The notes below the pieces were generated by a model. The model was not told the origin of the DNA and made no database searches. It saw nothing but the letters and a program-made list of their open reading frames with translations. The position numbers and the translations under genes were made by a program. From Thermodesulfobacteriota bacterium (lineage in GTDB: Bacteria > Desulfobacterota > Binatia > Bin18), in NCBI GenBank assembly GCA_964291405.2, contig OZ219926.1, forward strand, positions 1,333,825-1,397,824: a DNA stretch of 64,000 nucleotides, written 5' to 3'. Positions 3,142 through 3,165 of the stretch are shown piece by piece (the first letter of the stretch is position 1; each line of letters starts with the position of its first letter).

Positions 3142-3165
3142 GGGGATGCGATATATCTAGGCAAC
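3142..3165 (+). promoter_or_regulatory. conserved box GGGGATGCGATATATCTAGGCAAC upstream of BVMO gene 1 (candidate operator or promoter element)
   Basis: The same GATATATCT(A/G)(G/A)GCAAC core recurs at 4864-4887 and 44481-44496. Each copy lies 27-38 nt upstream of a BVMO start codon. Confidence 0.5.

Follow-up and report, generated by a model that had tools for sequence, protein, structure and literature searches.

A short sequence box that recurs three times in a 64-kb stretch of Binatia DNA is a real, lineage-specific cis-regulatory box, and it marks a co-regulated subset of the Baeyer–Villiger monooxygenase (BVMO) genes in its genome. Most likely, the signal combines a core promoter with a recognition site that overlaps it, which would make it conceptually of an ordinary type. 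In the reading towards which the evidence leans, the box would be a transcription-initiation element of approximately 21 bp that belongs to the B1/B2-type and B3-type BVMO genes and is also read by a dedicated factor. The stretch analysed (hereafter the window) comprises positions 1333825–1397824 of contig C3 in the 4.95-Mb assembly of an uncultured Candidatus Binatia bacterium.

All three copies of the box are on the forward strand, at 3142–3165 (GGGGATGCGATATATCTAGGCAAC), 4864–4887 (GGGGATGAGATATATCTGAGCAAC), and 44473–44496 (GTCGATAAGATATATCTAGGCAAC). The 16-nt core that an earlier note on this DNA had picked out, GATATATCTAGGCAAC, occurs without mismatch at 3150–3165 and 44481–44496 and with two mismatches, as GATATATCTGAGCAAC, at 4872–4887; the core is therefore present as described, but the stretch held in common is longer (GATnnGATATATCTAGGCAAC). 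Matches to the 16-mer with three or fewer mismatches are expected 0.19 times in the window, and none of 100 shuffled sequences gives three. A search of all 4.95 Mb returns no further site at two or fewer mismatches, and the motif is thus not common in the genome, in keeping with the regulatory role that had been suggested for it. In the whole 4.95-Mb genome, AGATATATCT is confined to the two places that had been given for it; the 8-mer GATATATC on its own occurs 35 times, which is about chance level. With a 21-nt weight matrix built from 15 variants, the three sites score 35–37 bits against 15.4 bits for the next best site genome-wide—the level reached by shuffled sequence—and the scan of the genome adds no further members to the regulon. 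Literature on the string GATATATCT as an operator yields irrelevant matches only.

The genes behind the three copies are likewise encoded on the forward strand. BVMO1 (3193–4821) is a type I Baeyer–Villiger monooxygenase whose closest solved relative is phenylacetone monooxygenase (E = 1e-179), and its Shine–Dalgarno sequence, AAGGAGGGGG, is found at 3180–3189. BVMO2 (4914–6542) is a tandem duplicate of BVMO1 with 93% amino acid identity, and BVMO3 (44534–46195), also a type I BVMO, shares 46% identity with BVMO1. Each of these genes has its own box, situated after an intergenic gap with a predicted hairpin, and box end and start codon are separated by 27, 26, and 37 nt, such that the range of 27–37 nt given previously needs correction at its lower end. 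The earlier note had further placed the box before "all three BVMO genes", which is too broad a statement: tblastn detects around 12 BVMO-like genes in the genome, and the two closest paralogues, at C3:2894337 (65% identical to BVMO1) and C3:1217541 (77% identical to BVMO3), have no box. Independent contigs encoding the exact BVMO1 or BVMO3 proteins are not on record.

The tandem repeat unit that contains BVMO1 and BVMO2 begins at 3142, where the conserved element has its left edge. The first two copies do, then, belong to the duplication, and the argument that the box is not simply carried along by it applies to copy 3, which is independent because BVMO3 shares only 46% identity with BVMO1 and the flanks are unrelated. 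BVMO3 is nearer to orthologues in other phyla than to BVMO1, and the two lineages are, by sequence comparison, old paralogues that diverged anciently.

Conservation beyond this genome was assessed by running a degenerate consensus, ATRNGNTATATCTRRGC, against 401 Binatia genomes, with the reversed consensus as control. This gives 37 exact matches, compared with none for the control, and all 37 fall within four genera of one family. In 35 cases the match is located 47–58 nt upstream of a BVMO start codon; the other two are an orphan box beside the 5′ remnant of a BVMO gene and a chance match inside a TonB-receptor-like gene. The proposed tie between the element and BVMO genes is borne out by 36 of the 37 class-wide matches, by the uniqueness of the box in its genome, and by its retention in four genera, and the view that it is a functional cis-regulatory element, shared by and specific to these BVMO genes, holds. 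Further matches in the relatives at two or fewer mismatches are in coding frames or otherwise unrelated to BVMO genes.

Throughout the genus, B3-type orthologues are preceded by the box, as are distant orthologues with 75%–86% identity whose flanks have diverged. It is absent from the BVMO3 orthologues in Myxococcota and Gammaproteobacteria, and a metagenome scan with BVMO1 retrieved six B1-type relatives (72%–75% identity), all without it. The upstream regions of all B1-type orthologues in the genus comprise many diverged variants, with a few in which the box is decayed or absent. Two loci define the edges of the element: L013 has a replaced sequence upstream of GGATGC and the box, L006 a diverged one downstream, and GGATGC and the box are intact in both. 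The element is hence delimited to approximately 21–24 nt.

It is scarcely credible that the box has no function of its own and that the likeness of its copies stems from duplication, gene conversion, or chance. It is true that the first two copies are parts of one tandem duplication and that BVMO3, in one genome, functions with another upstream region; however, copy 3 stands before a distantly related gene with unrelated flanks, the box has been kept across four genera while its flanks were replaced, and 37 real matches face none in the control. The conservation and enrichment data already contradict an absence of function.

The pattern of conservation at individual positions was counted over 27 distinct variants, with a numbering that sets TATATC as −12 to −7; this promoter register, in which copy 1 spans −22 to +2, was picked after the data had been seen. 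The conserved unit reads A-T-R-n-G-n-TATATC-T-R-R-G-C. Positions −18 (A), −17 (T), −16 (a purine, G or A), −14 (G), and −3 (G) are the same in all 27 variants, whilst −15 is free among A, C, and G and is never T, and −13, mostly A, is otherwise counted as free. Within the hexamer, T(−12) is found in 26 of the 27 variants, A(−11) in every one, A(−9) is invariant, and −7 is C in 24, A in two, and T in one. Downstream of it, T(−6) is kept in 26 and C(−2) in 25, positions −5 and −4 are purines in all four combinations, and conservation fades past approximately +2. In the genus, the B1-type block is nearly invariant from −22 to +2 with variable flanks; the B3-type upstream region is invariant from approximately −45 to −8 and, beyond −7, is as variable as the remainder of the leader.

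These counts do not favour the 10-bp palindrome that had been taken as the conserved unit, as its left arm varies across relatives (GCTATATC, GGTATATC, and GCGATATC). Dyad symmetry is limited to the 8-bp core GATATATC, and the conserved flanks, with GATR to the left and TRRGC to the right, are not mirror images of each other. Of the two functions between which the earlier note had left the choice—the operator of a dimeric regulator, or a −10 or leader element shared by the genes—the −10 reading is the better fit to the invariant and free positions and to the element boundaries, and the argument for a dimer operator is weakened.

The box would thus act as an extended −10-like core promoter that continues through the discriminator to the transcription start. 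In copy 1, the proposed −10 hexamer TATATC occupies 3152–3157 on the forward strand, with the invariant G(−14) at 3150 and a start predicted at around 3164; the hexamers of copies 2 and 3 are at 4874–4879 and 44483–44488, with predicted starts at around 4886 and 44495. The 5′ untranslated regions (UTRs) would be 29, 28, and 39 nt long, each with a strong Shine–Dalgarno sequence. Distances from −10 to start codon in native promoters are mostly 24–48 nt, and for the boxes they are 34, 35, and 45 nt.

Extended −10 promoters of the sigma-70 type (TGn, or "TRTGn" in Gram-positive bacteria) are known from Escherichia coli and Bacillus subtilis. The box resembles them in its T(−17), its purine at −16, its invariant G(−14) followed by a free base, and its TA-initiated hexamer with an invariant A(−11), as well as in doing without a conserved −35 and in lying at a distance from the start codon that is typical of native promoters. 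It differs from them in never having T at −15, in the C, rather than T, at the end of its hexamer, and in the invariance of positions −18, −6, −3, and −2, which is not demanded of generic promoters; the motif, moreover, is limited to one gene family and does not make up a general class of promoter.

Candidates for a −35 element are tentative and weak. In copy 1, TCGAAA (3129–3134, forward strand) matches TTGACA at four of six positions, is 17 nt upstream of TATATC, and is kept as TCGAAA, TCGCAA, or TCGCAC in B1-type loci. In copy 3, TTCCTA (44460–44465, forward strand) matches at three of six, again 17 nt upstream, and sits within a block that is invariant in 13 genomes of the genus. The corresponding position in copy 2 holds GGTCGC (about one of six), and in other genera a conserved TTCACA (five of six) precedes the TATATC of B3-type boxes by 18–19 nt. 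No sequence is common to the three copies upstream of about −20 to −22. A weak or absent requirement for a −35 would explain this lack of sharing, and it would likewise explain how a duplication that starts at −22 could yield a second gene with its box intact.

The native promoters of the genome also provide points against a promoter. The most enriched upstream hexamer is TTGACA/CTTGAC, followed at 16–18 nt by TAnnnT (TTGACA-N17-TAnnnT). These TTGACA-anchored promoters favour T over C at −7 by around 3:1, and the hexamer of the box ends in C, although C at −7 is nonetheless enriched in native promoters over controls. Moreover, the T(−15) of the canonical TGn is never seen in the box, G(−14) is not enriched in the native promoters, and G(−14) and C(−7) are equally readable as the outer pair of the palindrome GATATATC.

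The same 21 bp probably serve, in addition, as the site recognised by a dedicated trans-acting factor, which would be either a repressor or activator overlapping the −10 or a specialised sigma-like factor, and which would co-regulate these ketone-oxidising enzymes. A housekeeping sigma factor gives little weight to positions −18, −6, −3, and −2, or to a C in place of T at −7. The boxes of BVMO1 and BVMO3 agree at −18, −13, −6, −3, −2, −1, +1, and +2, and it is the retention of weakly sigma-read positions in two old gene lineages and four genera that points to such a factor. A regulator placed over the −10 would be in line with a palindromic core and with the constancy of C at −7.

Pfam scans of approximately 56 window open reading frames (ORFs), and of the neighbours of the box in L032, L040, L093, and L041, reveal no regulator beside it. 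The 64 kb hold a single recognisable regulator, the TetR gene at 62825–63556, which was rejected as the cognate factor since an orthologue is present in around seven of 28 genus genomes and missing from many that have the box. No weaker copy of the box scores above 15.4 bits before any regulator or other gene of the genome. Compared by eye, the motifs for sigma-54, ECF/sigma-E, sigma-28, sigma-B, Fur, FNR/CRP, IHF, LysR, and XylS-type regulators show no in-register fit across the three copies. An outer inverted repeat in copy 1 (TGC…GCA) was also discarded, as it is not concentric with the core and is missing from copy 3.

Should the real promoter be elsewhere, either upstream or in chance overlap with the box, the box could be purely the binding site of a dimeric regulator that is centred on GATATATC and encoded at a distance. 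We regard this as rather unlikely, though several features fit it: the 8-bp core is a perfect palindrome whose symmetric partners are equally conserved (G−14/C−7, A−13/T−8, T−12/A−9, and A−11/T−10), which would explain the otherwise odd invariant C at −7; the footprint is approximately equal, with 8–9 bp on each side of the dyad centre; and the very small, gene-family-specific set of targets is typical of local regulators. The conserved flanks are nevertheless asymmetric, with GATR facing TRRGC, in none of the four genera examined does a regulator gene lie next to the box, no regulator gene is preceded by a weaker copy, and the nearby TetR is excluded. B3-type loci, furthermore, vary more in the right half of the box than in the sequence to its left, and an operator without a promoter would make little sense between BVMO1 and BVMO2.

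Local repressor operators that overlap the −10 or +1 are known for the TetR-family protein EthR at ethA, which encodes a BVMO, in Mycobacterium and for CamR at the camphor operon; regulators of this type are encoded beside their targets and usually autoregulate. Like those operators, the box is a short, dyad-containing site just upstream of a BVMO gene, has a very small target set, and is positioned such that a bound protein could block RNA polymerase. Unlike them, it has no adjacent regulator in any genome examined and no copy before a regulator gene, and its symmetry is restricted to 8 bp.

The box can also be read as an upstream ORF (uORF) of four codons, ATG-(CGA/AGA)-TAT-ATC-stop, that encodes M-R-Y-I-stop and would control translation or stability of BVMO mRNA as a leader peptide or a ribosome-loading mini-ORF. 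Although we judge this improbable, several features conform to it: M-R-Y-I-stop is spelled in 18 of 30 instances, five arginine codons (CGA, CGG, CGC, AGA, and AGG) appear as codon 2, ATC is changed to ATA—also isoleucine—in two genomes, the two purine positions produce all three stop codons, and the left edge of conservation is near the ATG. In L167, AGGAGG stands 6 nt ahead of the ATG, and the B3 copy has GGAG 5 nt ahead of its ATA. The start codon, however, is ATA in all 13 B3-type copies of the genus, in which the box is still conserved, and the stop has become TGG in two genomes, in one of which the reading then continues into the BVMO gene in a different frame. A usable Shine–Dalgarno sequence is missing from most copies: either GGGG abuts the ATG with zero spacing, as in B1/B2, or there is none, and no −10-like sequence, as a leaderless start would have, is found 7–12 nt before the ATG. 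The middle G of codon 2 is retained through arginine, glycine, and serine, and the synonymous changes TAT to TAC and ATC to ATT are never seen though neighbouring positions often change; the constraint is therefore on nucleotides. Other M-R-Y-I mini-ORFs in the genome amount to chance expectation (two boxes plus one match).

Very short uORFs are familiar in bacteria as the leader peptides of resistance genes and the short leaderless ORFs of mycobacteria. The box is like these in spelling ATG, three codons, and a stop 20–30 nt before the ribosome-binding site of the main gene; it is unlike them in that the start codon is missing from a whole conserved clade, a ribosome-binding site is mostly lacking, the stop is lost in two genomes, and constraint acts on the nucleotides rather than the peptide. 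In its fullest form, this proposal would have a translated M-R-Y-I-stop leader with rare, A/T-rich codons gating the translation or stability of a set of BVMO mRNAs in four Binatia genera, possibly in addition to a DNA-level signal, and we hold it to be just as doubtful. If true, the leader would rank with the shortest conserved regulatory peptides associated with a family of catabolic enzymes.

An RNA-level element of the 5′ UTR—a structured regulator, a target of an sRNA or protein, an RNase site, or an A/U-rich translation enhancer—is very unlikely to account for the box. Its position 26–37 nt before the start codon, its fixed orientation relative to the gene, and its standing as the only A/U-rich stretch of the leader would all be in order for such an element. 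Rfam 15, however, returns no match at E ≤ 1 within 2900–5100 or 44200–44700, and the leaders fold no better than shuffled sequences (z from −0.8 to +0.6), with the box unpaired in all predicted folds. The genome holds no complementary partner at three or fewer mismatches, chance coding matches aside, and an A/U-rich enhancer would have no need of invariant G and C positions.

A core promoter that doubles as the recognition site of a factor remains the preferred reading, and there is natural variation around the box. In L041 (G004:C3:2724608–2732266), a rearrangement has given a 99%-identical BVMO3 a new upstream region with a canonical CTTGAC…TATATT. The box has been removed, a double-EctC-like gene (53417–54250 in the window) now stands immediately upstream of BVMO3 in divergent orientation, and homology to the window restarts only at the Shine–Dalgarno sequence. 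The same genome, G004, retains boxes at its B1-type genes. Two genomes, G011 and G005, have a decayed box at the first B1-type gene, and in six genomes a different conserved motif stands before the second gene of the tandem pair. This replacing motif, G(G/A)GTATA(T/C)ATCACAGTAAGTT(A/G)ATATCTCATAAGGGAGG, is found in L125, L128, L129, L132, L134, and L136 (genomes G018, G015, G011, G005, G021, and G027, respectively); its alignment to the box (TAYATC..AG.AA) is loose, and it may be either a diverged relative or a different promoter. Boxes that have been swapped, decayed, or replaced indicate that the box is dispensable and swappable, as is expected of a promoter or regulatory module.

To our knowledge, Binatia are uncultured, and we know of nothing reported on their control of transcription. 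The main genomic survey of the phylum (Binatota) makes no mention of BVMOs, promoters, or regulators. The box marks which of the approximately 12 BVMO paralogues are probably expressed together, and such a co-expressed set hints at a common substrate or condition—the oxidation of ketones or the sub-terminal oxidation of alkanes, for example. It also yields exact predictions of transcription starts that can be checked in soil metatranscriptomes, and a 24-bp bait for the putative factor.

Several further observations concern sequences close to the box or related to it. In three other genera, an 18-nt block, GAA(C/T)CACGTT(A/C)TTCACAA, has been kept upstream of B3-type boxes (L032:2912–2930, L093:2920–2938, and L167 at approximately 715–733). 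It contains the −35-like TTCACA but may be a second regulatory site, since it is longer than a −35 needs to be. In the genus of the window the block has been deleted, with GGAGAGTCGA joined directly to TAAGATATATC. The orphan box of L167 (G302:C378) has B3-type flanks and is followed by approximately 30 nt of BVMO 5′ remnant and then by an unrelated gene, the product of which contains YPMGDVPQDRGVCTDLVIRAYR; here the BVMO gene has been lost and its upstream region left behind. In L117 (G013:C1:738645–738660), a box-like sequence with two mismatches, GATATATCTATGGAAC, overlaps the start codon of a gene for a LysR-type regulator, in a divergent region rich in A/T, and it is probably a chance occurrence because the mismatches hit invariant positions.

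Other observations relate to individual genes. Orthologues of the TetR gene at 62825–63556 in G015, G018, G001, and G010 are 94% identical, and several have one or two in-frame TAG or TGA codons; these may be pseudogenes or may reflect recoding in a selenoprotein-rich lineage. A BVMO paralogue at G014:C43:498880–500484, which is 67% identical to BVMO1, has two in-frame TGA codons and could be a pseudogene or a selenocysteine form. At the edge of the window, 3–458 on the reverse strand holds the 3′ part of a SmaI-type restriction endonuclease gene (PF17411). The 64-kb window as a whole is rich in oxidoreductases and hydrolases, which include, besides the BVMOs, four luciferase-like monooxygenases, GSTs, epoxide hydrolases, amidohydrolases, SDRs, and RidA.
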